Below are positions 3,526 through 63,177 of a DNA stretch of 64,000 nt, one piece after another; the first letter of the stretch is position 1, and each line of letters begins with the position of its first letter. This DNA is from Candidatus Saccharimonadales bacterium (lineage in GTDB: Bacteria > Patescibacteriota > Saccharimonadia > Saccharimonadales > UBA7683). The position numbers were made by a program, and so were the translations under genes. The stretch covers positions 268,263 through 332,262 of the forward strand of contig JAXMAA010000001.1 in NCBI GenBank assembly GCA_046350615.1. Direction: 5' to 3'. The notes under the pieces were generated by a model. It was not told where the DNA came from and did no database searches. It worked only from the letters and a program-made list of their open reading frames with translations.

Positions 3526-4374
3526 TTATGTCAATATTTGGGCATCTTCAATCTGGTGATTGCCGATTCTGGTGCGGCGGAGTTCGGTGCAGTAGGCGCC
3601 GGTTTTGAGGGTTTTGCCGATATCTTCTACCAAGGAACGGATGTAGGTGCCGCTGCTGACGTCGCAGATGCATTTGAGGTAGGGGTATTCGTAGCTTACT
3701 AGTTGTAATCTGCTGATTGTCACCTTTCGGGATGGAATCTCGAAACTCTTGCCCTCTCGGGCCAGTTTATAGGCCCGTTTGCCGTTAATTTTGATCGCAG
3801 AATAGGCCGGTGGGGTTTGGGTAATCTCTCCCGTGAACTGACGAAGTGCTTGTTGCACTTCTTCGGGAGTTGGATTATTGATAAGTGATTTTTGAAGGGA
3901 AGATAACTCGCGTTGCTCAGGACTTTCTACTGGATTCCCGATCAGGTCGGGAATGACAGAGTCGTCAGATCCTCCGTTTTCCATATTCCATATTCCGTAT
4001 TCCAAAATCTCACCTTCCGGATCGCCCGTGCTACTCACCTCACCGAGCTTTGCGGTGAACTCGTAGGTTTTATCTAGTTTTAGGTATGATGAGGCGTCTT
4101 TGCAGGCATCGCCAACTAAGATAATAAGCAGTCCGGTAGCAAATGGGTCAAGCGTGCCGGCATGACCAACTTTAATTTTTTTGGGTTTTTGGGTGGAAGG
4201 TAACTCGCTTCGCTCAGGTTCATTAAACTGGATTCCCGTCTTCACGGGAATGACGGGTCTATTTGCTATTTGCTGGTATCTGTTATCTGTGTTCCGAAGC
4301 AAGCTTCGGATGCGGGCAACCACATCAAAACTCGTCCATCCGGCTGGTTTATCAATCAGTATTACATCTTTCAT
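3526..4374 (-). CDS. truB: tRNA pseudouridine(55) synthase TruB, carrying two in-frame hairpin-repeat insertions
   Basis: ILIDKPAGWTSFDVV and KVGHAGTLDPFATGLLIILVGDA are the TruB motifs. Extra segments ...RPVIPVKTGIQF... and ...DSVIPDLIGNPVES... are encoded by repeat copies at 4230-4254 and 3932-3957. Confidence 0.9.
   Translation of the reverse strand: MKDVILIDKPAGWTSFDVVARIRSLLRNTDNRYQQIANRPVIPVKTGIQFNEPERSELPSTQKPKKIKVGHAGTLDPFATGLLIILVGDACKDASSYLKLDKTYEFTAKLGEVSSTGDPEGEILEYGIWNMENGGSDDSVIPDLIGNPVESPEQRELSSLQKSLINNPTPEEVQQALRQFTGEITQTPPAYSAIKINGKRAYKLAREGKSFEIPSRKVTISRLQLVSYEYPYLKCICDVSSGTYIRSLVEDIGKTLKTGAYCTELRRTRIGNHQIEDAQILT
3932..3957. repeat. Hairpin mini-repeat, in frame within truB
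   Basis: ggattcccgatcaggtcgggaatgac: stem attcccga/tcgggaat, loop tcagg, then GAC. On the coding strand it is translated as VIPDLIGNP. Confidence 0.75.
4230..4254. repeat. Hairpin mini-repeat, in frame within truB
   Basis: ggattcccgtcttcacgggaatgac: stem attcccgt/acgggaat. It is preceded by the shared module cgcttcgctcagg and translated as VIPVKTGIQ. Confidence 0.75.
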
Positions 4375-7579: not shown

Positions 7580-7605
7580 GTCATCCTGAGCGAAGCCGAA
7601 GGATC
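7580..7605. repeat. Hairpin mini-repeat (AGGATGAC subtype, reverse orientation)
   Basis: gtcatcctgagcgaagccgaaggatc is near-identical to 63152-63177 and to the reverse complement of 42924-42949. Confidence 0.7.
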
Positions 7606-8721: not shown

Positions 8722-8832
8722 AAAACTCCTTCGTTTATATCACAGCTCCACTCTAGAGTTTCTAAGTAGTATTTGAAATATTGTCTATAGTTGTTTATAG
8801 ACAATATTAAATAATATGGGCATACTTATGAC

Positions 8833-9606
8833 ATGCAACCAGTTATCAAGTGGCTCCATGAGTACGGATTGAATCAAACTGAAGTAAAGGTTTACTTGTG
8901 TGTGCTGCAGAATCCGGCGGTTAAAGTTTCGGATATTCAGAGACTTACAGCTCTTGTCCGGACAACTCTCTACTACACCCTTGCCGAATTAAAGACAAGG
9001 GGTCTTATTTCAGAGAATTTACAGAATAACGTGAAGTCGTATCGAGCCGCCGACCCGGACGTTTTAAAGAATGATATAGAGGCACAGATTGCCACAAACA
9101 AGAAACAATTGAACGAACTTGAGAACCTCGAGACTATCTTCAACTCACTCGCTGAAAAAAAGGTGGCACCAGAATCATACGTAGCACGTTTTGAAGGTAT
9201 CGCCCCAATTAAGGGAGCGATTGAGCAGGCGTTTCGCTGTCATTCAAAACGATGGCATATCATTGCAGCTCGTAAAAATTTTCTCTACTTCATGAGCAAG
9301 CAGTACCAGCAATACTATCTGGCCGAAAGGAGACGGCGAGGCATCACTGCCAAAACACTTTGGGAGCCAACTGAAGATTTTAGAGAGCCCACGCTTGAAG
9401 ATGTGCTCTACAGAAATCAACGGAGATTACCTGAAAACTTTCGTGGTAGATTCAAATCACTTGTAATTATCTATGATGATACGACTCTTATTATTGATCC
9501 GTACGAGTACAAAACAGCACATGCAATCCACAATGCTACCACCGCCCGATTACTCAGTATGCTACACGAATCTATCTGGCACCATGCAGGAAAGAATCGA
9601 GCTTAG
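8833..9606 (+). CDS. TrmB-family HTH transcriptional regulator
   Basis: N-terminus KWLHEYGLNQTEVKVYLCVLQNPAVKVSDIQRLTALVRTTLYYTLAELKTRGLI matches the TrmB winged-helix pattern. Confidence 0.6.
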   Translation: MQPVIKWLHEYGLNQTEVKVYLCVLQNPAVKVSDIQRLTALVRTTLYYTLAELKTRGLISENLQNNVKSYRAADPDVLKNDIEAQIATNKKQLNELENLETIFNSLAEKKVAPESYVARFEGIAPIKGAIEQAFRCHSKRWHIIAARKNFLYFMSKQYQQYYLAERRRRGITAKTLWEPTEDFREPTLEDVLYRNQRRLPENFRGRFKSLVIIYDDTTLIIDPYEYKTAHAIHNATTARLLSMLHESIWHHAGKNRA

Positions 9607-9768: not shown

Positions 9769-10686
9769 TTAACCTAGTTTTACAACGGCTAGTTCCAAAA
9801 CACGCCACGGCTCAACTGATGATGACTTCAATTGTATGTCGGCGTTGGTAACAACATCAACTATGGCTCGAACACTTGTTGGACGTAAGTTTCTGGCAAG
9901 ATTGCGGGTTTTTTGGACCACGTAGGGGCTGAGTTTGGCCTCTTTCGCCACCTGACTATCACTCGCTGAACTTGCACTTGCTACCACTGCAAGAACATGA
10001 GTCTGCCAGATGAGCATGTTTACTAGCTGGAACGGGTCTTCGTGCGCTCGCTCCATGTCAGAAAGAAGCTGCAAGGCCTGTTGTTGGCGACCACTAAAGG
10101 CATATTCAAGCAATTGAAAAACGGCTTGTTGTGGTGTTTTTTCAACCAACAAGTCAACAGTTTCTTGTGTAATTTTTGGATCGTATGAGAGTAGCTTCTC
10201 TAACTCTTGCTTCAGACGAAGTTGATCAAGGCCGACTCGTTGCACAAAGTAGCTTGCTGCCGAAGTGGTAATCACTCCGCCGTTATCTTTCACAAAAGAT
10301 TCCGCCCACCGCTGCATCGTCATCTCGTCCGGCTCGGTGAACTCTTCCAGCACCGCTGACTTCTTAAGTGTTTTGTAAAACGACGTGCGTTTATCGAGCT
10401 GATTTTCAACCAAAATTACCTGCACCCCATCGGAGGATTTGGTGAGCATTAGAGAAAATTGTTCCGTCAGCTCCTTTTGCTGTGTGAGATTATTAATAAT
10501 TACCAGCCGATGTGTTGAAAAGAGCGTGGCACCTACGAGAAGCGAGGGCAGCTGATTTGGTTCAATGTGCTCGGCGGAAAAAGTCTCCACACCCTCTGGC
10601 CCATACTGAGCAACAAAGTCATCACGAATCTGCGCTAGCCGCTGCTGCAAAGTAAATCTATTTGCGCCAAATAATACGGTTATCAA
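9769..10686 (-). CDS. holA: DNA polymerase III delta subunit-like protein
   Basis: Size (~305 aa), an N-terminal RFC-box-like region and a C-terminal helical domain with the holA-like pattern. It overlaps the upstream gene by 4 nt, suggesting an operon. Confidence 0.6.
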   Translation of the reverse strand: MITVLFGANRFTLQQRLAQIRDDFVAQYGPEGVETFSAEHIEPNQLPSLLVGATLFSTHRLVIINNLTQQKELTEQFSLMLTKSSDGVQVILVENQLDKRTSFYKTLKKSAVLEEFTEPDEMTMQRWAESFVKDNGGVITTSAASYFVQRVGLDQLRLKQELEKLLSYDPKITQETVDLLVEKTPQQAVFQLLEYAFSGRQQQALQLLSDMERAHEDPFQLVNMLIWQTHVLAVVASASSASDSQVAKEAKLSPYVVQKTRNLARNLRPTSVRAIVDVVTNADIQLKSSSVEPWRVLELAVVKLG

Positions 10687-11522
10687 CGGAGTAGCCCCTT
10701 CTTGAGATCAACAACTACCATTGAGCCATCAGTGAAGAACGCATCGCCGCCGCCATTGCGATGTGAATATTTTGGGAAAAACCCTTCTATCTTCTGTACT
10801 TGCTTGGTTCGATGCACCCGCTTAATTGTTTGCACCACAAAATCACGTTCGGCGTCGACATCGCCATCAATGCTATGCGTAATTTGGAGTGTAAATCTTG
10901 AAAGTCCCACGGCATCATCGTAAGTTGCTGCTGCCACCCAGTCAACGTTGTGACCACCGGGCAGATAAATATCTTTCGGAATTCGCCAAAAACGCACATG
11001 ATGACGCTTTGCAGGGTTACCATCTACTTCTTTTTGAAACGCCAGATCTTGCTTTTTGCCAAATACGTACAGATCGCTCACTGGAGCGTTCTCGTAACTA
11101 CGCTTGAGTAGCGTTGCACGTATGGTAGTAAGCGCTGTTTTTATCGTTATTGGATCGGCCAGATCCCAACCTGCTTTACGCATGGTTTTGAGGAGTGTTT
11201 TTTCGGTACCCCGCAGTGCAAGGTTAACAGGATCCGCAAGCAAACCATCAGCTGTTCGCGCGCGCCCGATAAAGTAATCTGGCACATAAATACGACTTAA
11301 AAAACGATGGATACGTGGCAGCAAAATATATGAGGTAACCACCCAGAGCAACAATAAACTGATGAGCACATGCTTATCTGTACGAAGATTATTGATGGCA
11401 ATATAATAAGCCGCAACAACAAAAAGCAAACCACCGAGTAGAATGCCGACTCGTTTAAGCGGTACCACCAGCCGCCATGATTGTCGCATGTACCGCCCTA
11501 CATTCCTGATGAACTTCTGCAC
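10683..11522 (-). CDS. LssY C-terminal-domain-like membrane protein
   Basis: N-terminal transmembrane helices, then a conserved GxxxDPVNLAL..GWxxADPIT pattern typical of the LssY_C family. Confidence 0.45.
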   Translation of the reverse strand: MQKFIRNVGRYMRQSWRLVVPLKRVGILLGGLLFVVAAYYIAINNLRTDKHVLISLLLLWVVTSYILLPRIHRFLSRIYVPDYFIGRARTADGLLADPVNLALRGTEKTLLKTMRKAGWDLADPITIKTALTTIRATLLKRSYENAPVSDLYVFGKKQDLAFQKEVDGNPAKRHHVRFWRIPKDIYLPGGHNVDWVAAATYDDAVGLSRFTLQITHSIDGDVDAERDFVVQTIKRVHRTKQVQKIEGFFPKYSHRNGGGDAFFTDGSMVVVDLKKGLLR

Positions 11523-11554: not shown

Positions 11555-14233
11555 TTATCTGGTTTCAGAAAATGATACACGATTTTGAGAGAACGTAGCG
11601 ATAATCTTTTGGCCGTCTTTTACTTTGCCCTCGATAATTTCAAGTGCGAGCGGGTCTAACAGATCAGTTTGGATGAGACGCTTGAGTGGACGAGCGCCGT
11701 AATTTGGGTCGTAGCCAACTTCGGCCAGGTGTTTTTTGACGCTTTCATCAATGGTGAGCGTAATATTTTTACTCGTTTTGAGGTGTTTGATTACTCGCTC
11801 AAGCTGAACGCCTACAATGTTGTTCATTAATGCTTCACTGAGCCGCTCGAATACCACAATGTCATCAATACGATTAAGAAATTCTGGACGGAAGTGCGCG
11901 CGCAAACGATCGTTGAGGGCAATCTCAAGTGCTTCGTCAGTCAGCCCAATAGGGCTGTCATCCTCGGACTTGATCCGAGGATCCAGTTTATTTTGTATGC
12001 CCTTGGCATTCTTTGTTTGACTGGATTCCAAATCAAGTTTGGAATGACGGGAAGGAAAGTTGGTGTTCAAAATTAAATCGGAGCCAAGATTGCTGGTCAT
12101 GATAATCACCGTGTTGGTGAAGTTGACGGTTCTCCCTTGCCCATCAGTCAAACGCCCATCATCTAAAATCTGCAGTAGTGCATTAAAGACATCTGGATGT
12201 GCTTTTTCAACCTCATCAAACAACACTACAGCATATGGGCGGCGGCGCACAGCCTCGGTCAGCTGTCCGCCCTGCTCGTAACCAACGTAGCCCGGAGGCG
12301 AGCCAATCAGGCGAGCCACGGCGTGCTGCTCCATGTATTCGCTCATGTCAATGCGCACCATGGCATCTTCATCATCAAATAACTGTTCGGCTAGAGCTTT
12401 GGCAGTTTCGGTTTTACCCACACCGGTTGGACCCAAGAATAAGAACGAGCCGATTGGCCGACCCTCATCGGAAATACCGGCGCGTGAACGGCGAATGGCA
12501 TTGGCCACTGCGGTGATAGCCCGATCTTGCCCAATCACCCGCTTTTCCAACTCCTTTTCAAGATGCACCAGCTTCTCAGATTCGCTCTCTAATAAGCGCG
12601 AAACCGGAATGCCGGTCCAGCGTGCTACCACTCTAGCAATATCTTCGCTCGTCACCTCCTCTTTCAAAAGGCGCTTGTCGCCATCAAGCTTTGCAAGCTC
12701 ACTCTTAGCTTTGGCAATGGCTTTCTCGGCTTCCGGAATTTTGCCGTACTGTAATTCACCAGCTTTTGCGAGATCGTTCTCGCGCTGGGCAGCCTCAAGC
12801 TCCGATTTGTACTGATCGAGATTCTCACTAGCTTGGTTTAAATTATCAATCAGTTCTTTTTCACGCAGCCACTGCGTTTCCAGCCCGCTCGAAGATTCCT
12901 TTAAATCTGCGATCTGCTGCTCAAGCTCTTTTTTGCGCGCCTTAGCACTCTCGGACTTATCTTTTTTGAGCGTGGTAAGCTCAATCTCGAGCTGCATTTG
13001 CTTGCGTTTTGCTCTATCAAGCTCGGTTGGCATGCTTTCTATCTCAATTTTGAGTGCCGAGGTGGCTTCATCTATTAAATCCACCGCTTTGTCGGGCAAG
13101 AATCTATCAGCAATGTAGCGGTCACTCAGCCGCGCCGCCGCAATTAACGCATCGTCAGTAATCTTCACGCCGTGGTGAATTTCGTACTTTTCTTGCAAAC
13201 CCCTGAGAATGGCGATTGAATCTTCTACGCTCGGCTCATTCACATACACCGGCTGAAAACGCCGCTCTAAGGCTGCGTCTTTTTCAACGTACTGCCGGTA
13301 TTCATCGAGCGTTGTTGCTCCAATTAGGTGCATTTTGCCGCGCGCGAGTGAAGGCTTAATCATATTACCGGCGTCAACCGAACCCTCTGATTTTCCCGCG
13401 CCAACAATGGTGTGCAGCTCATCAACAAACAAAATAATTTCGCCATCAGATTTTTCTACCTCGTCAATCACCGCCTTAAAACGCTCTTCAAATTCGCCTC
13501 GATATTTTGCGCCAGCCAGAAGACTGCCGATACTCAGCTCAATCAGCTTCTTATTTTTTAGACTACTCGGCACGTCGCCATTCACAATGCGCTGCGCCAA
13601 ACCTTCAGCAATAGCTGTTTTACCCACGCCTGGCTCGCCAATCAGCACCGGATTATTTTTAGTACGGCGAGAAAGTACCTGCATCACGCGCCGAATTTCT
13701 TCATCACGGCCAATAACCGGATCTAACTTGCCACTCCGAGCCAGCTCGGTGAAATCCTGCCCATATTTTTCCAGCACATTTTGCTTATTTTCAGGAGATT
13801 GATCCATAACCTTCCGCCCTCCTCGCACACTTTCAATATTATTTTTAAGCTCATTGTAATCTACGTTAATCAACTTTTGTTCCGCCGCCGCCAAAAGCAC
13901 ATGCTCAGTACTCACGTGCGTGTCGCCGAGATTCTTCGCCTCTTTTTCGGCCCGCTCAATCAGCTTAATGAATTCTCTGTTTGGTCTGATATCAACACTC
14001 GAGACCTCCGCACTACTCTTAGCTACAGCATCGAGACCGTTATTCACAATCCGCACCACCTCATCGCGCACATTCGCCCGATCAATCAAAATCGTAAACG
14101 TCGTATCCGCTTGCTCAAGTAGTGCCTTTAGTAAGTGCCACTGAGAAAACTCCAGATTTTGATGCTCACGAGCCAACTCCACCGCTCGCTGCAGCGCCTC
14201 AATCATCTTATGAGTCAATGAATCCGTATTCAT
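11555..14233 (-). CDS. clpB: ATP-dependent chaperone ClpB, with two in-frame hairpin-repeat insertions near the C-terminus
   Basis: Two AAA+ modules ([10 protein letters not shown] and GPTGVGKTE), a coiled-coil middle domain and a Clp N-domain. The extra segment ...[42 protein letters not shown]... lies between MTSNLGS and [10 protein letters not shown]. Confidence 0.95.
11957..11983. repeat. Hairpin mini-repeat, in frame within clpB
   Basis: gtcatcctcggacttgatccgaggatc (reverse orientation): stem atcctcgga/tccgaggat, loop TCAAG. Translated as DPRIKSEDD. Confidence 0.75.
12023..12048. repeat. Hairpin mini-repeat, in frame within clpB
   Basis: ggattccaaatcaagtttggaatgac: stem attccaaa/tttggaat, loop TCAAG. 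Translated as HSKLDLESS. Confidence 0.75.
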
Positions 14234-16114: not shown

Positions 16115-16260
16115 AGCGTCCTTATTTTTTCTTTTTAAACTTCAATAATCCCTTTGATGGGCTTGGGTTGGCCAATTTTGGCTCTCTAACCGAACTCTTT
16201 GGTATTTTTGGTATCTTCATGCTCATAACATACCCCCTTTAAGATACTTTGATGATGTAT

Positions 16261-17142
16261 TTATTGTAGCACAGCAGGGGCGACCTGGCATTTTGGGCAA
16301 ATGTGGGTGCCGCGGCCAGCAACGCGGGTTTTTATGATGGTGGTGCCGCAGCGCTGGCATGGGGTGCCCTCTTTTCTGAAGACGCGGGCGAAGGAGATGT
16401 AACTGCCTTTTTTGCCCTCGGCATTGACGTAATTTTTATCGGTTGAGCCGCCTTTTTCTATCGAGAGCCCAAGAACTGCTCGCAGTTCGGTGTAGAGGTT
16501 GTTAATTTTAGATTTTGGGATGTCTATCACCTTGGTTTCGGGGTGAATCTTGGCCGCCCAAAGACTTTCATCGGCGTAGATGTTGCCTACCCCGGCAATC
16601 ACGGTTTGATCTAAAAGTACTGCTTTAATGCCCGAGTTTTTTCGCCGCAGCAACCTATCTTCAAAAATCGATAATCTAAAATCTGCCTCGAGCGGCTCTG
16701 GGCCCACCTTCTTCATAAAATCAATATTCGGTACTTCAATTGTTGGATATAATCTCACCCAACCAAACTTGCGCTGATCATTGAAAAATAATCTTGCACC
16801 GTTATCGAGGTCAAATATCACCCGGGTAGAGCGATCTGGTAGTTCACCAACCAGCGAATCGTTTGGGTGCCCTGCCCCAAATACAGCCTCTCCCCTATAG
16901 ACAATCTGGCCCGTCATTTTTAAGTGAATGACCAGCGTGTGCTCAGTGGAAAGATCGATTAATAGCAGCTTCGCGCGACGACGAATATCAATTACCGTTG
17001 CGCCAACAAGAAACTCATCTACATCGGCTCGGGCATTTGGAAAGCTTTTTTCGGTATCTGAAGAAACAGCAACGACCTTGTGGCCAATCAATAGCCTCTG
17101 TAAACCGCGTCGAACTGTTTCAACCTCAGGAAGTTCTGGCAT
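16261..17142 (-). CDS. mutM: Formamidopyrimidine-DNA glycosylase
   Basis: MPELPEVETVRRGL N-terminus, an H2TH region and a C-terminal zinc finger CQRCGTTIIKTRVAGRGTHICPKCQ. Confidence 0.95.
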   Translation of the reverse strand: MPELPEVETVRRGLQRLLIGHKVVAVSSDTEKSFPNARADVDEFLVGATVIDIRRRAKLLLIDLSTEHTLVIHLKMTGQIVYRGEAVFGAGHPNDSLVGELPDRSTRVIFDLDNGARLFFNDQRKFGWVRLYPTIEVPNIDFMKKVGPEPLEADFRLSIFEDRLLRRKNSGIKAVLLDQTVIAGVGNIYADESLWAAKIHPETKVIDIPKSKINNLYTELRAVLGLSIEKGGSTDKNYVNAEGKKGSYISFARVFRKEGTPCQRCGTTIIKTRVAGRGTHICPKCQVAPAVLQ

Positions 17143-18606: not shown

Positions 18607-19101
18607 TCACGCATAGATACCACTTAGCTCATTGCGAACACGCATCAATATAAGGCCAAGATGATTCTCGCCGTCAGTACTACCTATTGGGTCTACACCC
18701 CAGAACCGATCACCCCAATCATTACCTTCAACTAGCTCTTCGACACCGGTCTGAGCAAGTAATAATGCGATGTCGTGATTGGCTGCGAATTTCCGCTTCA
18801 CCGCCTCGTACATTAAATCAAGCTTTGCGTTTGGCCAGTCTGGGAGCTGCTCTTCACCGGAATCTACGAGCTTTCGTGCGAAACTTTTAACTGCCTTTCC
18901 ATTCGCATACCAAGAGGCATCGCTCGGCTCGGCACGAATCTCAGCGACTTCACGTTGGACATCAGGATCAACAAATCGGCCCGACATATACACATGCTCA
19001 GAAGTAGGAACTTGAATACCGCAAAGTGCCAAGATTGGTACCTTCAGTGGGTACATATTACTGAGGTAAAAATGCTCACCCCGAAAACGTTCGATTGTCA
19101 T
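18607..19101 (-). CDS. NADAR (YbiA-like) domain protein
   Basis: N-terminal FRGEHFYLSNMYP matches the DUF1768/NADAR signature (FxGxYxFLSNF). Confidence 0.65.
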   Translation of the reverse strand: MTIERFRGEHFYLSNMYPLKVPILALCGIQVPTSEHVYMSGRFVDPDVQREVAEIRAEPSDASWYANGKAVKSFARKLVDSGEEQLPDWPNAKLDLMYEAVKRKFAANHDIALLLAQTGVEELVEGNDWGDRFWGVDPIGSTDGENHLGLILMRVRNELSGIYA

Positions 19102-21899
19102 AAATCACCCCAAGTTTTGCCGGATTTTACATCTACTTTTAATTTTACAGGGAGTTTGGTGTAAATATTTTCCATGATTTCAATTAGAAGCTTCTCTACT
19201 TCTTCAGTTTGTGATTCTTTGCACTCAACAATGATTGAATCGTGAATCTGCAGCAACTGACGCGGAGCGTCATCCTCAGCTTGACTGGGGATCTCGTTAG
19301 TATTGGCACGAGATCCCCGATCAAGCCGGGAATGACGGCTACCCATACCCATCAGTTTTTTATCTACTTCGATCATTGCTAGCTTCATTAAGTCCGCCTC
19401 TGTACCCTGAATTGGCATGTTCATAGCTGCCCGTTCTGCACTTGAGCGAACAATAAAATTACTCGATGTAATATCTGGCATCGGTCGCCGCCTACCAAAT
19501 AACGTCTCGACATAGCCTTTACTCTTGGCTGTTTCAATCAATTCAGCCGTGTAGTCAAACAGGGGTTTTCGTAGTTCTTTGTACCGAGTGAGAAACTCTT
19601 TGGCTTCATTTAAATTCATGCCGGTAGCCACACTTAAGCCGTGAGTGCTCATACCGTATAAAATGCCGAAGTTAATTACCTTGGCGTGTCGGCGTTGATC
19701 TGGAGTGACCTCGTGCGGCTTGATACCGTATACCTGCGCAGCTGTGGCGGTGTGAATATCGGCATCTTGATTGAACAGCTCAATAAGTTCTGTATCACCA
19801 GCCATAGCCGCCGCAAGTCGCAGTTCAAATTGGCTGTAATCGGCACTAACCAGCACATTGCCCTCCCCAGCTCTGAAGGCCTTGCGAATTTTTTTACCGA
19901 TTTCAGTGCGCACCGGGATGTTTTGTAGGTTTGGCTCGGCAGATGAAAGCCGACCGGTTTGTGCAATAGTCAGACGAAAATCGGTATGCAAACGTGAATG
20001 TTGATCAATCAGCTTCGGCAAGGCATCAACATAGGTAGACTTCAGCTTGGTATATTCACGGTACTGTGTAATCAAATTAATGATGGGATGCGACCAACGC
20101 AGTTTATCAAGCTCATTGGCAGCCGTAGAATAGCCAGTCTTGCCCTTCTTCACGCCTTGAGTTGGTAGCTTCAGATCTTCAAACAATACTTTCGCAAGTT
20201 GCGAAGGCGAGCTGATGTTAAATTCTTGGTTAGCATGGCCATACACCTCTTGTTCAATGTCAGAGATGATACCCTCAAACTCTTCACTCATTTTGGCCAA
20301 GTATGGAGCATCGAGCTCAATGCCCGCCACCTCCATACGAGCCAAAACTGAAATAATTGGCCACTCAACTTCTTCAGCCAATTTAATCAGACCGGTCAGT
20401 TCGCTCATTTGTTCACCTTGTTGATGAGCGAGGTGCGAAATAACCGCACTCAACGTGGCAGCCTTGGCGATTAACTCCTGCGAATCGATATTATCAAGTT
20501 CGGTTTCCACCCCAAGATCTCGTGCCGCCATCTCAGTTAAACTAGTCTCTCGCTGCAAGCTGTTGATTAAAAAACCGCCAATGAGCGTATCGTGTGCAAT
20601 CTGCGGTAGCACGCTGTCATCCTGAACTTGTTTCAGGATCCGTTTTGAGTCGTTGGTAGATTCTGAAACAAGTTCAGGATGACGTGCCAAGAGCAGCATT
20701 TTGAACACGTGTTTAAGGTCGTGGCCGATAACACTTTTTGGCTTGAAGTGACTGAGAACAGCCGGTAAATCATTGCCGAGCTGCTCGGCATCAAGCACGA
20801 AAACCGCCTTCTCATGCGCCAGAATAAACAGTTGTGGCTGGCTGCCAAGTGCATCGCTTGAGCGACCATACAACACAACCTCTGCTTTACCGTTCAGAGC
20901 TGCTAACTTCTCGGCATCCGAGACTGACGTAATATGTTGCACACTGCCAAGCTTCAGATCAGAAAAACCGGCCGCCGCCTGCTCCTCCTCGCCATCATCA
21001 TGATTCTGCATATGTTCTGGCAAGTTACGCAGCAAGCTTCTAAATTCAAATTTTTTAAGAAGAGTCTTGAGCTTGGCAGTATCGAGATCGTTCACGTCCA
21101 TATCCGGGAGATCAAGCTCAACTGGTGCGTCATCATAGAGCTCGGCCACCTCTTTGCTCATATATGCCGAGGCACGGCCGGCTTCCAGTTTTTTTGCAAG
21201 CGTTGGTTTAATGTGCTCGAGATTTTCGTAAACATGGGCAAGCGTGCCGTATTCTCGTAAAAGTTCGGCGGCAGTCTTCTCGCCAACCCCTGGTACACCA
21301 GGAATATTATCAGAACTATCGCCTTTCAAGCTTTTTAAATCCAGAAATTGCTCTTTTTTAATACCGTACTTGTCCTCGAACGCTGCGATATCAAACCGCT
21401 CGATGTTACTAAAACCCTTCTTGAGAGCGTAAACTTGCGTGTGCTCGCCAACACTCTGCAGGGCATCAAGATCTGAGGTAATAAGCATTGTTTCAAGCCC
21501 GGCTTTATCAGCCTTTAGGGCAAGGGTGTGCATGATATCATCAGCCTCGTAATCGTCAAACTCATAGAGCGGCCAGCTGAAAGCATCAAGCAGCTCATAG
21601 AGCAACGGAATTTGTTTATAAAAATCCTCTGGTGCTGCCTTTCGCCCAGCTTTGTACTCTGGGTGTACCGCCAAACGTCGGCGAATATTCGTTTTTGGTT
21701 TGTCCCACGCCACACAGACGTAATCTGGCTTAAGCTTCTTCAGAAGCTCTAAACTCATAGCAGCAAAGCCATACACTCCACCCGTAGGTGTACCATCTGC
21801 CATGCTTAAATTACCCATGGCATAGTAGCCACGATAAAAAACCGACTTCCCATCAATAATCGCCAGCTTCTTACGTACTTCCGTCATCATCATTGCCAA
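19098..21899 (-). CDS. polA: DNA polymerase I, with an in-frame ~30-aa insertion made of two hairpin repeats before motif C
   Basis: 5'-3' exonuclease N-terminus, 3'-5' exonuclease-like domain, polymerase motifs A (DYSQFELR) and B (RRHAKVINFGILYG), and LLQIHDSIIVE (motif C). The segment MGMGSRHSRLDRGSRANTNEIPSQAEDDAPRQ is encoded by repeat copies 19269-19336. Confidence 0.95.
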   Translation of the reverse strand: MAMMMTEVRKKLAIIDGKSVFYRGYYAMGNLSMADGTPTGGVYGFAAMSLELLKKLKPDYVCVAWDKPKTNIRRRLAVHPEYKAGRKAAPEDFYKQIPLLYELLDAFSWPLYEFDDYEADDIMHTLALKADKAGLETMLITSDLDALQSVGEHTQVYALKKGFSNIERFDIAAFEDKYGIKKEQFLDLKSLKGDSSDNIPGVPGVGEKTAAELLREYGTLAHVYENLEHIKPTLAKKLEAGRASAYMSKEVAELYDDAPVELDLPDMDVNDLDTAKLKTLLKKFEFRSLLRNLPEHMQNHDDGEEEQAAAGFSDLKLGSVQHITSVSDAEKLAALNGKAEVVLYGRSSDALGSQPQLFILAHEKAVFVLDAEQLGNDLPAVLSHFKPKSVIGHDLKHVFKMLLLARHPELVSESTNDSKRILKQVQDDSVLPQIAHDTLIGGFLINSLQRETSLTEMAARDLGVETELDNIDSQELIAKAATLSAVISHLAHQQGEQMSELTGLIKLAEEVEWPIISVLARMEVAGIELDAPYLAKMSEEFEGIISDIEQEVYGHANQEFNISSPSQLAKVLFEDLKLPTQGVKKGKTGYSTAANELDKLRWSHPIINLITQYREYTKLKSTYVDALPKLIDQHSRLHTDFRLTIAQTGRLSSAEPNLQNIPVRTEIGKKIRKAFRAGEGNVLVSADYSQFELRLAAAMAGDTELIELFNQDADIHTATAAQVYGIKPHEVTPDQRRHAKVINFGILYGMSTHGLSVATGMNLNEAKEFLTRYKELRKPLFDYTAELIETAKSKGYVETLFGRRRPMPDITSSNFIVRSSAERAAMNMPIQGTEADLMKLAMIEVDKKLMGMGSRHSRLDRGSRANTNEIPSQAEDDAPRQLLQIHDSIIVECKESQTEEVEKLLIEIMENIYTKLPVKLKVDVKSGKTWGDL
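19269..19336. repeat. Two adjacent hairpin mini-repeats in frame within polA
   Basis: gtcatcctcagcttgactggggatc (19269-19293, reverse orientation, TCAAG loop on the other strand) and gagatccccgatcaagccgggaatgac (19310-19336), followed by the conserved GG. Confidence 0.7.
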
Positions 21900-21935: not shown

Positions 21936-22760
21936 TTATAACTCATCGGCTTCAAGACCAAGCCGAATAGCTGCTGACCGCATCTTACTCAGGGCAGCAT
22001 CTCTATGCCTGCGTATCATTTCACCTGTCAACCCCTCTCTTTCACCTATAGCTCGAAGCGAAGACGGTGCTTCGCCATCTAGCCCAAAAGATGCCACAAC
22101 GATCCGTTCTTGGCGTGGGTCAAGGCCAGCTCTACTCAAGAGCGACCTGGCAACCTCAGTAATTTCAGCCTTTTCGTAGCCCCTGTTAGACTGCGGATCA
22201 GATACAGTATCTAGTAACGACGCATCACCATCACTAATGGGGGAATCGTACGATACAACGCCAAGCGCAGCTTGAACACTGCGGTTGCCCGTTTGGCGAA
22301 TTCTATGAACGGGTACACGGATAAGACTACCTTTTGTGTCAATTGCCCGTCCTACTGCCTGTCGGATCCAGAAGGTAGCATAGGTCGAAAACTTAAAGCC
22401 CCTGCGCCAATCAAACTTCTCCACAGCATGTTCAAGACCAATATTACCCTCTTGTATAAGGTCGATCATCTCGAGTGACCGTTGCTTAGGATATTTTTTT
22501 GCAACACTTACAACTAATCTTAAATTTGCATTGATGAAATGTTTGCGCGCGGCAATCCCCTCAAGAAACATCTGATCATAGGCTTCTCTGTCCTGAATGT
22601 CAAGATCGGGGTCCTGAAGTGTCCGCCACGCATCGCGACCTATTTCAATTTTTTTCGCGAGTATTACTTCCTCATCAGCCGTCAGCAACTCATACCTACC
22701 GATGTCATCAAGATAGGTTCTCAGAGGATCAACAAAATTGGTTTGGTTTTCATGACCCAT
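21936..22760 (-). CDS. Sigma-70 family RNA polymerase sigma factor (alternative, group 2/3-like)
   Basis: Region 2 ([15 protein letters not shown]), region 3, and region 4 with an HTH ([28 protein letters not shown]). The preferred start is ATG 22760 (MGHENQ). Confidence 0.8.
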
Positions 22761-37885: not shown

Positions 37886-38440
37886 AAATAATATTTTGTG
37901 ATAAACTGTATTCATCATCGTTTTGCGGCAACTGTGAGGTGGAGAACTCTCAGCTAACCAGCAAAGGATAGCGATGAGTACTTATAACAAGAGACGTACA
38001 GGCTATCAGAGTAATCTGATGGTTTTTGGCGCCTTAAAGTAACTCATAGGTAAAACGAGATCGCCTATAAAGTGGTCATGTGAGGTACATTAACAAGCTA
38101 CGGTACATAACTTTTGTTATGTATTAGTCAAATCATTACAGTGTATAAACCTGTTGCAACAAAGGCTTCGGGGCAGAGTTGTGTTTAGCTGAATTAACTT
38201 TTGATCCGCCGCAAACGAACCAAAGGCTAATTCGCCGCTAAGCACTACTCTGCTCCTGAGGCAGTTCGGCCTTACAGCTTGAACACTTTAGTTGCAGCAG
38301 ACCGTTTACTTTGTGCGCTTATAGTTACTATAAGATGCACTCGAACACACTAACGCAACAAGCGCATTGATAGCCTTCCAGTTGGGCAGGAGGTATGCCG
38401 CCAAGTACATAATTATGAAAAAATTGTGTGCTGCGCGGCA
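37886..38440 (+). ncRNA. ORF-free ~0.55-kb region with its own promoter-like element; candidate structured ncRNA, not classified
   Basis: TTGACA(taaataatattttgtga)TAAACT at 37886-37914 is followed by ~500 nt that lack ORFs of 60 aa or more on either strand and contain many local stem-loops (e.g. ggcttcggggc; gcgccttaaag...). No motif of tmRNA, RNase P, SRP or 6S RNA could be confirmed by eye. Confidence 0.25.
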
Positions 38441-38468
38441 TATCCCCAACCCGACCCAGGAGGTCATT

Positions 38469-39332
38469 ATGCCACGTCCCACCACGCACGATGACCTCGT
38501 GCGCAAGAGCCGAGGGATCACCTCGGCCCACAAGGGCTTGGCCGGTCACACGGCCGAGCTCACCGAGCTCAAGACCCGGCTGCGGCAGGCGCAGGACCGC
38601 ATCGCCCAGATGCAGCCCACCGTCAGCCACGTGCCGGGTCACCAGCGCGGGCTGATCCGCCTCAGCGGGCGGATCAAGGCCCTCGACGCCCAGCTCAACG
38701 AGCTGCTGCACCGCGAGGCCACCGGCACCACCGGTGGCAAGGAGCCCAGCCCCACGCTGACGGCTGCCTGGCAGAAGGAGTTCGACCGCCTCCAGCAGGA
38801 GGTGCGCGGCTACTTCACGGACCTCGACAGCCAGATGGCTGCGATCCGCGATCGGCTCGACGAGCACGACCTCAAGTTCGCCAACCACGGCGAGCGGATC
38901 GAGGCCGTGGAGGTGCAGAGCAACGCGAACGCCACGGCGATCGCCAGCCTGCGCAGCCGCGTCGACGAGCGGGTCCACCCCGCGCTCTGGATCGCCTCCT
39001 TCGTGGGGGCCATCTTGGGCGGCCTGTTCATGGCCGTCTACGACTGGAGCAGGGTCATCAAGGTCAGCGAGACCACGACGACGGTCGGTAACCCGGCCCT
39101 CGACTCGTGGTTCGGCATCACGCTGGGCGCCCTCGTGGGGTTCTTCGTGGTGTTGGCGATCGGCATGCTCTTCAGCGCCCTCGCGGGCAACGATGAGCAG
39201 GAGGTGACCACCGCTTCGGCGGCGTCCGCCTCGAGCCGCATCGCGATGCGTGATGTGGCAGCTCCGCCGACGGCGGTGCAGCCGGTGATCCCGCAGCCAG
39301 CTTCGGTCGACCGGCCTCAGCCGGTCGCCTAG
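38469..39332 (+). CDS. Hypothetical coiled-coil membrane protein (island gene 1)
   Basis: ATG 38469 lies 5 nt after AGGAGG. The N-terminal ~170 aa are Gln/Leu/Arg-rich coiled-coil-like. There are two transmembrane helices (ALWIASFVGAILGGLFMAVYDW and WFGITLGALVGFFVVLAIGMLF) and an Ala/Pro-rich tail. Confidence 0.7.
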   Translation: MPRPTTHDDLVRKSRGITSAHKGLAGHTAELTELKTRLRQAQDRIAQMQPTVSHVPGHQRGLIRLSGRIKALDAQLNELLHREATGTTGGKEPSPTLTAAWQKEFDRLQQEVRGYFTDLDSQMAAIRDRLDEHDLKFANHGERIEAVEVQSNANATAIASLRSRVDERVHPALWIASFVGAILGGLFMAVYDWSRVIKVSETTTTVGNPALDSWFGITLGALVGFFVVLAIGMLFSALAGNDEQEVTTASAASASSRIAMRDVAAPPTAVQPVIPQPASVDRPQPVA

Positions 39333-39470
39333 CTGGCGCTGCCGAGCTCCCCATGAGGAGAAGGTTATGTGCACCTGGGTACTCGGGATACTAAATCCTG
39401 CCCAAAGCGCCGGGGGCAACAGCTACCCACAGTCCAACACGCTTCAACCACAATAGGAGGTAGCTCTCAA

Positions 39471-40529
39471 ATGAGCAGGCGTACCGCAAGTGCAGCGGGG
39501 GCGGTGGTGGCTTTGGCCCTACTGCTCCTGGCTGGGCTCATCATCACGGTGAGTTCCAGCAATGCCAAGGGCGACGGGGGTCCCCCCATCGACCCGAAGG
39601 CGAAGTGCGGAACCAAGACCGGTTTCCTGGCGGACTACGCCACTGGAAACCGGTTCGGTCCCGCGGTGACCGAGACCAACGTCGACAAGGTCAAGGAGCA
39701 GCTCCACACGGAGCGGTGTCTTGACCCGATGAAGGTCGTAGCTCACCTCGAGTACCAGGCCCGTGCCTACTCCTCTCCGGAGGAGCGGGCCGAGCACACG
39801 CGTCGGCTGCGGGACACCCCCAACGCCCGCGTGAGCGCGATCGCCAAGCTCGAGGCTCGGGAGCGTTCGGCCGTCAAGGTCGAGATCACCGAGATGAGCA
39901 ACGAGTACCAGACCATGTACGCGGTCAGCAAGGGGCACGACGTTCCGTACGTCTACGCCACCACCGCCGACCGTCCGCGGTTCAAGGTGCTCAAGTTCAG
40001 CTACTCGGACGGGTCGTGGGACGCGTACAAGCTGGATTGCGATTTCCAGCCCGTCGCGACCCGGTTCCCCGGGCTGCCGCAGTCGCCACCGCCTCCGGGC
40101 ACGACGACCACGGTTCCCGGGACCACCCCAGGCACCACTCCCGGAACGACCCCGGGCACTACGCCCGGTACGGTTCCTCCAGGCACGGTGCCGCCGGGGG
40201 TCACCACGACCACCAGGCCGGGGGTCACCACGACCACCAGGCCGGGTAGTACCACGACCACGACGGTCCCCCGGTGCACCCACAAGTGCTCCGAGGACAG
40301 CCCTGTGAGTTCGAACCCGAACGATCCCAACGAGAACGTTCGTCCGAACGGCACGGAGCCGCAGCGGCCGCCGACGACGGCTCCGGCTCCGCCGACGACC
40401 GTGGCCCCGCCGACGACGGTTGCGCCTCCCGCGCCCCCGCCGCCGACGACGGCTCCGGCTCCGCCGCCTGACGACAGCTGTGTCGACCCTCATGAGGTCG
40501 GCCTCTGCGAAAGGGCAAGGGCAGCCTAG
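39471..40529 (+). CDS. Hypothetical secreted/anchored protein with Thr/Pro-rich linkers (island gene 2)
   Basis: ATG 39471 lies 10 nt after AGGAGG. It has an N-terminal signal/anchor (AAGAVVALALLLLAGLIITVSS), a ~200-aa Cys-containing domain, (TTPG)n and PPTTVAPP repeats and a Cys-containing C-terminus. Confidence 0.7.
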   Translation: MSRRTASAAGAVVALALLLLAGLIITVSSSNAKGDGGPPIDPKAKCGTKTGFLADYATGNRFGPAVTETNVDKVKEQLHTERCLDPMKVVAHLEYQARAYSSPEERAEHTRRLRDTPNARVSAIAKLEARERSAVKVEITEMSNEYQTMYAVSKGHDVPYVYATTADRPRFKVLKFSYSDGSWDAYKLDCDFQPVATRFPGLPQSPPPPGTTTTVPGTTPGTTPGTTPGTTPGTVPPGTVPPGVTTTTRPGVTTTTRPGSTTTTTVPRCTHKCSEDSPVSSNPNDPNENVRPNGTEPQRPPTTAPAPPTTVAPPTTVAPPAPPPPTTAPAPPPDDSCVDPHEVGLCERARAA

Positions 40530-42923: not shown

Positions 42924-43015
42924 GATCCTTCGACTGCGCTCAGGATGACACCTGCATCACCGGCCCTTTCTAAGAACTAAACTCTGAGATCTACTTGCTA
43001 TCTGCTCAGGGCTTC
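42924..43015. repeat. Composite repeat: hairpin mini-repeat (AGGATGAC subtype) plus family-2-like motif
   Basis: gatccttcgactgcgctcaggatgac is the reverse complement of the 7580/63152 copies. It is followed by ctaagaactaaactctgagatctacttgctatctgctcagg (compare 5211-5250). Confidence 0.6.
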
Positions 43016-57965: not shown

Positions 57966-58034
57966 CCTTCCGTCACTCCTGCGCAGGTGGGAATGCAGGG
58001 GGAGGATATTCAGGAACAGGCCCAGAATGACGGC

Positions 58035-61122: not shown

Positions 61123-62769
61123 CTACATCCCCATCATTGATGGGTCCATGCCGCCGCCAGATGGAGCTGCGGGAGCTTTTTCTGGGATATCTACCACTAG
61201 TGCACCCATAGTCATAGCCGTGCCAGCAATTGACGCGGCGTTTAAAATCGCCTCTTTGGTTACACGGGCAGGATCCACCACGCCCGCCTTCTTCATATCT
61301 TGTAAGCCCGCATCTGGGTCGTTCACATTAATACCTTGACCAGCTTTACCAGCCTGCACCTGTGCAAGGAGCGCCTGAGCATTCAGACCAGCGTTCGTCA
61401 TGAGTTGTACAAACGGCTGCACCAAAGCATTCTTTAGGAGTACCGCTCCTGCTGAAGTTGAATCAGTGGCATCGTCAGTAATTGTCCCTGCAAGATTGAC
61501 CAGTGTTACACCACCGCCAGATACCACACCTTCGTCTAGGGCTGCTTTAACGGCTGCTACGGCATCGTCTACACGGAACTTCTTCTCTTCAATTTCAGTT
61601 TCAGTCGCACCACCAACCTTAATCACTGCAACTTTACCCTCTAAGGCTGCTCTGCGCTTCTCGAGGTTCTCTTTTTCGTACTCACTTGAGGCATTGCCAG
61701 CCTGAGCACTAATTTGCTCTACACGAGCTGCTACGGCCTTTGCAGAGCCTGCTCCTTCAATAATGGTGGAGTTATCTTTATCAACAATAATACGGCGAGC
61801 AGTACCAAGCATACTGATATCGGCATTCTCAAAGGTGTGGCCTTGATCTTCAGTAATCACCTGCCCACCTGTCAAAATTGCGATGTCTTCTAAAATCTCT
61901 TTACGCCGATCACCAAAAGCCGGAGCCTTAATGGCCAAGGTGTTAAACACTCCCTTCAATCTATTGAGAATCAAGGTGCCGAGTGCTTCGCCCTCGACAT
62001 CTTCGGCGATAATTACCAGATCTTTTTTACCTGTTTGCGCAACTTTTTCTAAAATTGGCAGAAATTCTTGAACTGAACTAATTTTTTTGTCGGTAATCAG
62101 TACCAACGGCTTATCGTACACCGCCTCCATACGAGCGGTATCAGTTACCATGTAGGGGCTCACAAAGCCACGGTCAAACGTAAAGCCCTCTACTACCTCT
62201 GATTCCATTACCAGGCCCTGGCCCTCTTCAACGGTAACAACACCGTCTTTGCCAACTTTTTCAATCACATCAGCGATTAGTGCGCCAATTGCCGCATCAC
62301 CAGCTGAAATGGTTGCTACTTCAGCTACTCGCTTTTTATCACCAGCGATATCTTCGCGCATGGTTCTCAGCTTCGCAATCACTCCTTCAGCAGCTTTTTC
62401 CAGACCTTTACGCAGCTGCATCGGGTTGTGGCCGGCAGCAATCAGCTTGTTTGCCTCATTCAAGATGTGGTATGTCAATACTGTAACAGTGGTAGTACCA
62501 TCACCCGCTACATCGTTCATCTTGCTGGCCGCTTGCTTAATCAGTTCAGCTCCAACTTTGTAGCCCAAAGTCTCGTCGTCTTCTGGCAACTCAATACCCT
62601 TGGCAACCGTTACGCCGTCGTGAGTAACAGTTGGGCTGCCGAAACTCTTAGAAATCACCACATTTCGGCCTTTTGGCCCCATAGTAGTTTTCACGGCGTT
62701 AAATAAAATCTCTGCCCCAGCCAGTAGGCGGCGGCGCGCGTCTTCATCGTAAAATACTTTTTTTGCCAT
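61123..62769 (-). CDS. groL: Chaperonin GroEL
   Basis: MAKKVFYDEDARRRLLAGAEILFNAVKTTMGPKGRNVV...GDGTTTVTVL...AVKAALDEGVVSGGGV and a C-terminal GGM repeat. Confidence 0.98.
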   Translation of the reverse strand: MAKKVFYDEDARRRLLAGAEILFNAVKTTMGPKGRNVVISKSFGSPTVTHDGVTVAKGIELPEDDETLGYKVGAELIKQAASKMNDVAGDGTTTVTVLTYHILNEANKLIAAGHNPMQLRKGLEKAAEGVIAKLRTMREDIAGDKKRVAEVATISAGDAAIGALIADVIEKVGKDGVVTVEEGQGLVMESEVVEGFTFDRGFVSPYMVTDTARMEAVYDKPLVLITDKKISSVQEFLPILEKVAQTGKKDLVIIAEDVEGEALGTLILNRLKGVFNTLAIKAPAFGDRRKEILEDIAILTGGQVITEDQGHTFENADISMLGTARRIIVDKDNSTIIEGAGSAKAVAARVEQISAQAGNASSEYEKENLEKRRAALEGKVAVIKVGGATETEIEEKKFRVDDAVAAVKAALDEGVVSGGGVTLVNLAGTITDDATDSTSAGAVLLKNALVQPFVQLMTNAGLNAQALLAQVQAGKAGQGINVNDPDAGLQDMKKAGVVDPARVTKEAILNAASIAGTAMTMGALVVDIPEKAPAAPSGGGMDPSMMGM

Positions 62770-62825
62770 ATACTTACTCCTTTTCTTGATATCATTTCTG
62801 CAAAAGCAGAAATCATTATGTAACT

Positions 62826-62851
62826 GGATCCCGTATCAGGTACGGGATGAC
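62826..62851. repeat. Hairpin mini-repeat in the groES-groEL spacer
   Basis: ggatcccgtatcaggtacgggatgac: stem atcccgta/tacgggat, loop TCAGG, then GAC. Confidence 0.7.
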
Positions 62852-62859
62852 GAGTCCCG

Positions 62860-63151: not shown

Positions 63152-63177
63152 GTCATCCTGGGCGAAGTCGAAGGATC
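63152..63177. repeat. Hairpin mini-repeat (AGGATGAC subtype) in the groES leader
   Basis: gtcatcctgggcgaagtcgaaggatc matches the 7580-7605 copy at 24 of 26 positions. Confidence 0.7.

Follow-up and report, generated by a model that had tools for sequence, protein, structure and literature searches.

An in-frame inverted pair of hairpin repeats in the clpB gene of a Candidatus Saccharimonadales bacterium and its assignment to the CGTC-tagged REP family

The clpB locus and its insert

The clpB gene of a Candidatus Saccharimonadales bacterium is located at 11555-14233 (minus strand) of a 64,000-nucleotide stretch of DNA (contig JAXMAA010000001.1 of assembly GCA_046350615.1, positions 268,263 to 332,262), hereafter referred to as the window. 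The coding sequence, obtained by open reading frame (ORF) call, specifies a protein of 892 amino acids identical to P0001, the ClpB recorded at NCBI as 'MAG: Candidatus Saccharimonadales bacterium' (MAG, metagenome-assembled genome), with matches to the Pfam families Clp_N, AAA, AAA_2 and ClpB_D2-small. Its second nucleotide-binding domain (NBD2) matches the Thermus thermophilus ClpB structures 4LJ4 and 1QVR with E = 1e-114. Compared with its orthologues this ClpB has 41 extra amino acids, and these derive from an in-frame inverted pair of a known, widespread bacterial hairpin repeat.

The whole insert, delimited by protein alignment and by codon comparison with the related loci L001 (filled) and L004 (empty), occupies 11939-12061 on the minus strand, i.e. 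123 nt or 41 codons (residues 725-765). Comparison of the filled alleles (window, L001) with the empty one (L004) indicates that the ancestral 12 nt AAA CCA GAA GAC (KPED) were replaced and lost, and no target-site duplication was seen. The insert is made up of two hairpin units, a 32-nt spacer and an extra flank of 11 + 17 nt. Among the 120 best ClpB matches, an internal insert of at least 10 amino acids is present only in P0001 and P0002 (889 amino acids); the other 118, including sequences that are 88-91% identical, read DLILNA-KPED-DEALE without it. The insert of P0002 was recovered at the same codon in three independent assemblies, namely L001 and L002 (both JGI) and L003 (Logan). An earlier note on this DNA, prepared from the letters alone, had called the segment absent from canonical ClpB, and the alignment bears this out, the extent being refined to the coordinates given here. 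An identical insert across distant lineages, which the same note regarded as a sign of an ancestral loop, was also looked for, and the insert proved to be limited to two lineages, both within one shallow clade.

The two hairpin units were located by inverted-repeat and tag-anchored scans. The left unit (12020-12049, minus strand) reads CGTC-ATTCCAAA-CTTGA-TTTGGAAT-CCAGT from tag to tail, its arms (12025-12032 and 12038-12045) forming a perfect 8-bp stem around a 5-nt loop. The right unit (11956-11987, plus strand) reads TGTC-ATCCTCGGA-CTTGA-TCCGAGGAT-CCAGT and is antisense to the gene; its arms (11960-11968 and 11974-11982) form a perfect 9-bp stem, again around a 5-nt loop. The spacer of 32 nt between them (11988-12019, minus strand) was defined from the dimer anatomy and the fold; it holds a small 5-bp hairpin of the TGCCA/AGG/GGCAT type and shows little conservation when the window is compared with L001. 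Next to it on the coding strand comes the right unit, as ACTGG-ATCCTCGGA-TCAAG-TCCGAGGAT-GACA. The two copies represent a single consensus, ACTGGATyC-stem-TCAAG-stem-GrATGACr, in reverse-complement form to each other, and therefore lie in opposite orientation; both are read in frame on the coding strand within the 892-amino-acid ORF. Folded as single-stranded DNA, 11950-12056 reaches -20.6 kcal/mol, against -8.4 +/- 2.3 for shuffled sequences (z = -5.3).

Two in-frame hairpin copies in opposite orientation had thus been read correctly in the earlier note, and each proved to be a perfect inverted repeat. The lesson drawn from their orientation, that the element tolerates both, does not follow, since a dimer with its tags outside ('HH') is the standard arrangement of the family: the clpB copies are the halves of one symmetric HH dimer, as in both polA inserts and in intergenic copies, and not two independent insertions. 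Just past the dimer, at 11941-11957, the window has a flank of its own, AGCCCTATTGGGCT, which forms a small hairpin (CAGCCC-AATA-GGGCTG, plus strand) and is absent in L001.

Position of the insert in ClpB and the open reading frame

The AlphaFold model of the protein has a mean pLDDT of 79.6, and residues 726-764 are the only ones with pLDDT below 50 and without secondary structure. They lie between two confidently predicted helices, one at 718-724, just after the TSN strand (709-714), and one at 766-780, which is followed by FRPEF and a strand at 791-794; the small C-terminal domain of ClpB begins near residue 800. The alignment with 4LJ4/1QVR breaks exactly at the insert, where residues 180-232 of the aligned fragment face an 18-residue linker of T. 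thermophilus. The insert is thus predicted to be a disordered loop within the alpha/beta core of NBD2, and its placement between the second AAA+ core and the C-terminal helical domain, as first proposed, has to be given up. Orthologue alignment and structure mapping, the checks suggested at that time, give KPED in 118 of 120 proteins and a predicted loop between helices 718-724 and 766-780.

The capacity of the units to be translated is general. In most of them, two of the three frames per orientation are stop-free, and the three intragenic dimers of the window (one in clpB, two in polA) all begin with CGT CAT (RH) and end with GAT GAC (DD), with tag-to-tag lengths of 93, 69 and 69 nt that are multiples of three. 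These open frames probably reflect the survivorship of insertions that spared the gene.

Orthologue comparison and kept pairing

The clpB genes of the window and L001 share ~75% nucleotide identity, and despite this ~25% divergence the left unit is identical over 26 nt (CGTCATTCCAAACTTGATTTGGAATC) in the window and in L001-L003. The right units of the window and L001 differ by one paired substitution and a paired 1-bp indel, by which folding is kept; in L001 the unit reads ATCCCCGA-TCAGG-TCGGGGAT, with pairing retained in an altered stem and loop, and it is translated in another frame to give NWIPDQVGDD. Likewise, the truB unit common to the window and L001 differs in stem and loop with its pairing kept. 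The peptide of the insert is only ~50% identical between P0001 and P0002, as against 87.6% for the remaining protein. Pairing is thus kept where the peptide is not, which places the constraint on the nucleic-acid hairpin rather than on the peptide. Selection, correction of the quasi-palindrome, or replacement by another unit are possible sources of this kept pairing. Identity between the window and L001 is not raised around the insert, as a recombination tract would require. Derivation of the right unit from ancestral KPEDD codons was considered and dropped, since the L001 unit reads QVGDD there.

The repeat family across the window

A fixed initial pattern, GGAT-N7-TCAAG-N7-ATC, returned one copy only, and it was the loop-anchored and then the tag-anchored scans that revealed the family. 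About 15 units are present in the 64-kb window (GTCATYC-N12-15-GRAT, 15 as against 0.34 expected per shuffle), and the more stringent YGTCATYC-N12-15-GRATCYNG gives 10 as against 0.01 per dinucleotide shuffle. Watson-Crick pairing holds at 50 of 59 stem positions left free by the pattern in the window and at 30 of 30 in L001. A unit consists of a YGTC tag, a stem of 8-9 bp beginning with AT, a loop of 4-5 nt and, in most cases, a CCAGT tail. The tag is CGTC in the left and TGTC in the right clpB unit, and of the C/TGTC type in the other listed window units; the loop is CTTGA in both clpB units and TCAAG, TCAGG, ACAAG or a 4-nt sequence elsewhere; and the CCAGT tail is shared by both clpB units and most of the others. 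Single units coexist with dimers, whose spacers range from ~6 to 32 nt, and tags-outside dimers lie at 2122-2186, 11956-12049, 19268-19337 and 20615-20684. Genes harbour more than half of the units. When the units were aligned together with 60-nt flanks, conservation did not extend outside the unit of ~29 nt, so that a longer shared element is not present.

The claim that truB and polA show the same phenomenon as clpB is borne out, as scans and translation place in-frame units of the same family in both. The polA gene (19098-21899, minus strand) carries two HH dimers, at 19268-19337 (read as RHSRLDRGSRANTNEIPSQAEDDA) and 20615-20684 (read as RHPELVSESTNDSKRILKQVQDDS), both absent in the L004 orthologue. 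In truB (3526-4374, minus strand) one unit lies at 3927-3958 (minus strand; read as SVIPDLIGNPVE) and has the orthologous unit in L001 with another stem and loop, and a second at 4224-4255 (minus strand; read as PVIPVKTGIQFN), absent in the L001 orthologue, has a 4-nt loop and the exact form of the Neisseria repeat dRS3, ATTCCC-N8-GGGAAT. A related motif, CCTGAGCGAAGCGAGTTA, occurs ~25 nt from both truB units (near 3890-3915 and 4195-4218), so that the truB copies may be hybrid dimers and not single units.

The intergenic members comprise the HH dimer at 2122-2186 (tag-anchored scan), whose left unit is CGTCATTCCCGCGAACGCAGGAATCCAG; a unit at 62824-62852 (minus strand), just upstream of the gene at 61123-62769 (minus strand), with a degenerate partner at 62794-62813; and a divergent unit at 58008-58031 (minus strand). 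A variant subfamily, also intergenic, with the same tag and stem ends (GTCATCC...GGAT) and a GCGAAGC-type interior (GAGCGAAGC/GAGCGCAGT) is found at 7580-7604 (plus), 42925-42949 (minus) and 63152-63176 (plus); the interior resembles the d(GCGAAGC) DNA mini-hairpin, which is very stable. Among related loci, at least 7 units are spread over the 22.7 kb of L001, as against none over the 15 kb of L004, the locus with a ClpB of 91% identity. The L001 dimer at 16209-16272 and the GCGAAGC-type unit at 7580-7604 of the window occupy a syntenic spot upstream of a large gene (708/767 amino acids), and such different unit types at one spot suggest hot spots or unit turnover.

Identity of the family: CGTC-tagged REPs, NTS/dRS3 and SRM

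CGTC-tagged REPs, in families CGTC-1 to CGTC-4, were described by Di Nocera, De Gregorio and Rocco (2013; PMC3733652), the main passages of which are the source for this family throughout. The definition given there comprises an unpaired terminal CGTC tag (variants TGTC, CCTC) and a stem of 8-9 bp that opens with an A-T pair followed by a T-A pair, and further traits are a 4-5 nt loop of few recurrent types, a CCA tail and heterogeneous stems; most of these REPs form HH dimers, which may be homo- or heterodimers. The same passages equate them with Neisseria dRS3 and with RPE-4 and RPE-6 of Rickettsia conorii, report them in five phyla (chiefly Alphaproteobacteria), and make the case for transcription of many REPs and for their action as RNA elements. 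Intragenic copies in frame encode 20-30 amino acids, notably in polA (DNA polymerase I) and truB (tRNA pseudouridine synthase B). The dRS3 repeat was subsequently extended to the 28-nt NTS, with consensus CGTCATTCCCGCGMAVGCGGGAATCYRG, and generalised to the Ssn-related motif (SRM), with the pattern HGTCWYN(0-2)YYVSBRHN(0-5)WNVSBRGN(0-2)RNCYNB (Chenal et al., 2025; PMC11893778).

The clpB stems ATTCCAAA/TTTGGAAT (8 bp) and ATCCTCGGA/TCCGAGGAT (9 bp) have the stem of a CGTC-REP, and the clpB units and the window family agree with that description in tag, stem, loop, tail, multicopy HH dimers, and the in-frame copies in polA and truB. The differences lie in the host, here a member of the Saccharibacteria (Patescibacteria, or candidate phyla radiation), and in the clpB insert itself with its extra flank and 12-nt deletion; the main passages of Di Nocera et al. 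(2013) do not mention clpB as a host gene. The likeness to NTS/dRS3/SRM extends to near-identical sequences: 2122-2150 of the window departs from the NTS consensus by one mismatch, and 22555-22583 of L001 equals it exactly. The published SRM pattern finds 5 of the ~15 window units (0.22 expected), with the right clpB unit (11956-11986) among them and the left one not. It is very likely, therefore, that the clpB repeat is a CGTC-tagged REP, also known as Neisseria NTS/dRS3 and SRM, present as one HH dimer. What the earlier note had right was that a dispersed hairpin repeat entered clpB in frame; its membership in a described family went unrecognised. A search against Rfam returned two tRNAs only and no family for the hairpins.

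In-frame palindromic repeats in essential genes, tolerated as extra surface segments in a reduced-genome, host-dependent bacterium, are also seen with the Rickettsia palindromic elements (RPE; Ogata et al., 2000), of which RPE-4 and RPE-6 are CGTC REPs according to the main passages of Di Nocera et al. (2013). The same passages mention that truB of R. conorii is interrupted by RPE-1 and that polymerase genes of this species, e.g. dnaE, carry REPs. Insertion within a conserved gene, in frame and absent in orthologues, as is typical of RPEs, was found once in clpB, twice in polA and twice in truB, and the clpB insert is predicted from the structural model to occupy the loop or surface site compatible with folding that is typical of these elements. 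RPE-1 is ~100-150 bp long and usually has one conserved reading frame, which yields a recognisable peptide family. The units described here, in contrast, are 29-32 nt long, occur in dimers of 69-94 nt, and vary in frame between orthologues. In-frame REP insertion is thus a known phenomenon; within the literature searched, the novelty lies in the host phylum and host gene and in the orthologous comparisons in which pairing is kept without the peptide. Neither intragenic copies nor Patescibacteria are treated in the main text of Chenal et al. (2025).

Ssn nuclease genes and the breadth of the motif

SsnA is a single-domain GIY-YIG nuclease of 94 amino acids. It binds the hairpin in just one orientation and solely in single-stranded DNA, its cut falls a few nucleotides upstream of the motif/tag, and the RNA version of the hairpin was not bound (Chenal et al., 2025). 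Copies of the motif typically border the ssn gene on both sides, an arrangement like that of an insertion sequence, and in N. meningitidis incoming transforming DNA recombines less when it carries the motif, through the action of the Ssn/motif pair (Chenal et al., 2025). Corresponding arrangements occur in relatives of the organism studied here. In L001, the unit at 22555-22583 sits 12 nt upstream of a GIY-YIG ORF that starts MNKQGYVYILASNQNGTLYIGVT. A complete unit-ssn-unit module is present in a Candidatus Saccharibacteria MAG (L051; CAYIJI010000030.1, 4355-4763), in the order of a unit 3 nt before the ATG, a 94-amino-acid ORF, a unit 10 nt past the stop and then an inverted unit. This ORF is a single-domain GIY-YIG protein (PF01541, E = 7e-17) whose Y6, Y17 and E64 correspond in position to the residues that were mutated in N. 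meningitidis SsnA, so that both the motif-ssn-motif layout and the nuclease itself are matched in a Saccharibacteria contig. GIY-YIG genes were sought by regular expression, the cruder first version of which missed real genes, and then by a hidden Markov model (HMM) of Ssn-like proteins, which found ORFs in 10 loci, 9 of them among 240 loci retrieved by the hairpin pattern alone. The chance expectation for such loci is below one by a rough, uncomputed estimate.

At least 120 genome stretches, drawn from many phyla, contain a 21-base motif of the unit; the matches listed include Nitrospirota, Desulfobacterota, Proteobacteria (including Rickettsia and Wolbachia), Saccharibacteria, other Patescibacteria, Armatimonadota, Chloroflexota and others. 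Among 135 units in the listed stretches, the free stem positions are perfectly paired in 112, the tag has C/T in 128, and the loop, which the search pattern fixed to TCARG, is TCAAG in 114 and TCAGG in 21. The 26-mer of the left clpB unit (CGTCATTCCAAACTTGATTTGGAATC) likewise occurs in at least 120 unrelated metagenome stretches with GC contents from 27% to 64%, none of them in clpB. One match of the 21-base motif comes from a Methanosarcinales archaeon MAG (L026; JAIWAR010000015.1, 367-395), where it is either real or a binning error. In the Wolbachia endosymbiont of Ctenocephalides orientis (L057; CP116769.1, 65-507), an ssn-like ORF lies in two fragments (at 169 and at 316) between two units and is apparently a decayed ssn gene.

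Proposed mechanism and points against it

The assignment of the clpB insert to a dispersed CGTC-REP/SRM dimer, which we hold with considerable confidence, rests on the anatomy of the units, their dispersal, their absence in orthologues, the predicted disordered loop and the kept pairing. By analogy with the Neisseria system, the hairpins would form in single-stranded DNA, and a GIY-YIG Ssn protein of ~94 amino acids would bind them in one orientation and cut upstream of the tag (Chenal et al., 2025). A dimer would then offer one cleavable orientation on each strand, and it may have spread as selfish DNA through a copying step. Its survival in clpB could be owed to two of three frames being stop-free, to a tag-to-tag length that is a multiple of 3 and to a tolerant loop, the encoded peptide being a passenger.

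Several points weigh against this account. The clpB insert exceeds the length of the dimer, removed 12 nt and lacks a target duplication, and so departs from any simple cut-and-paste model. Bootstrap neighbour-joining groups the insert-free P0007 with both carriers (87%) and pairs it with P0002 (89%); with P0007 inside the carrier clade, the insert must have been either lost again or gained a second time. To our knowledge no transposition or copying mechanism is known for the family, and a GIY-YIG nuclease alone is unable to rejoin DNA. No ssn-like gene was found by HMM within the 64-kb window, which leaves a cognate nuclease of this organism putative. The left clpB unit and ~10 other units of the window do not fit the published SRM pattern in its strict form, their stems being A/T-rich (CCAAA in the left clpB unit) or otherwise different; the window thus differs from the NTS/SRM system both in many of its stems and in the missing ssn. 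Moreover, a change in the sequence of the palindrome that kept its structure abolished the activity of N. meningitidis SsnA (Chenal et al., 2025), so that not every stem variant need be a substrate, and a dedicated transposase for CGTC-REPs was looked for in vain by Di Nocera et al. (2013).

A rather unlikely elaboration of the CGTC-REP/SRM account holds that the hairpins are not mere passengers, and that they are either subject to active unit replacement or hairpin correction tied to Ssn, or selected as Ssn cut sites inside core genes, on both strands, which police the recombination of incoming DNA. It is motivated by the pairing kept in clpB, in truB and upstream of the 767-amino-acid gene through changes of stem, loop, frame and peptide, and by a 26-mer that is identical across 25% nucleotide divergence. 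The hosts are naturally DNA-scavenging epibionts with reduced genomes.

Alternative explanations

The kept pairing with a changed peptide would equally be expected if the hairpins acted mainly as RNA in the clpB, polA and truB messages, as pause sites, RNase targets or stabilisers; the dimer does put both orientations into the mRNA, and many REPs have been argued to be transcribed and to be RNA elements in the main passages of Di Nocera et al. (2013). Such a role is nevertheless improbable, since the units occur in both orientations relative to their neighbours and also lie upstream of genes or between convergent genes, no Rfam family matches them, and their conserved asymmetric tag and tail fit an orientation-specific recognition of single-stranded DNA, SsnA being without RNA binding (Chenal et al., 2025).

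A lineage-specific functional loop of ClpB, to which the hairpin DNA would be incidental, could draw on the open frame in two lineages 25% apart in nucleotides and on flanking residues (N-F/I-P and GLT) common to both. It is made very improbable by the recurrence of the same units ~15 times in the window, intergenic regions included, by a peptide that is only ~50% identical (87.6% for the rest) and has one half in another frame in the relative, by the predicted disorder, and by the absence of the insert from 118 of the 120 nearest ClpB proteins.

REPINs moved by a RAYT tyrosine transposase, or another IS200/IS605-derived element, share with the present repeats the inverted doublet of short hairpins, a conserved unpaired outer tetranucleotide, dispersal within a genome and dependence on hairpins recognised in single-stranded DNA. 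REPINs, however, carry a GTAG tag, depend on a Y1 HUH transposase and are normally extragenic, whereas all units described here have a C/TGTC tag, and the gene beside the units in related loci encodes a GIY-YIG nuclease and not a Y1 transposase (no dedicated search of the window for PF01797 was made). As no RAYT with flanking CGTC units was encountered by Di Nocera et al. (2013) either, this origin is highly unlikely.

The length of ~94 nt, the terminal inverted repeats of 29-30 nt and the patchy distribution among close relatives recall a DDE-type miniature inverted-repeat transposable element. Against such an element, which we consider extremely unlikely, stand 12 nt of lost target in place of a target-site duplication, the coexistence of single units and dimers with spacers of ~6 to 32 nt, stems that vary with compensation, unlike inverted repeats bound by a transposase, and a unit conserved across many phyla. 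An assembly or binning artefact of the MAG has a negligible chance, as the exact ClpB of the window is on record from one assembly only but the orthologous insert recurs at the same codon in the three independent assemblies named above, with frame and flanks intact. A CRISPR repeat, an intein, an intron and a translational bypass were also considered and dropped, there being no array, no splicing or bypass signal and a continuous frame.

Other features of the window

In the window, clpB directly adjoins an LssY_C gene (10683-11522), unlike in L001, where a 352-amino-acid gene with a weak Pfam match to the Fic domain (12740-13798) separates the two. A perfect 13-bp inverted repeat at 8777-8808 (AATATTGTCTATA-GTTGTT-TATAGACAATATT), just upstream of the ORF at 8833-9606 (plus strand), is not a member of the hairpin family and may serve as an operator or terminator. 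The block at 38000-40500 has a GC content of 0.62, as against ~0.46 elsewhere, and no Pfam family above the cut-off; long ORFs lie on both strands (38328-39419 and 39519-40493 on the minus strand, 38367-39332 and 39369-40529 on the plus strand). Foreign DNA and a low-complexity gene of an unusual type are both possible explanations of the block.

Significance

With the clpB insert read as an in-frame CGTC-REP/SRM dimer, the Ssn/SRM pair and the catalogue of CGTC-REPs are extended to the Saccharibacteria (Patescibacteria). These genomes of ~1 Mb have little intergenic space, by which repeats would be pushed into essential genes such as clpB, polA and truB. For annotation, unexplained extra segments of 20-40 amino acids in the proteins of these organisms can be repeat-encoded and are not to be read as functional domains. 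For molecular evolution, the orthologous pairs provide a clean natural case in which hairpin pairing is conserved in a coding region and the protein is not. Furthermore, the availability of both filled and empty alleles offers raw material for working out the mechanism by which these repeats multiply.

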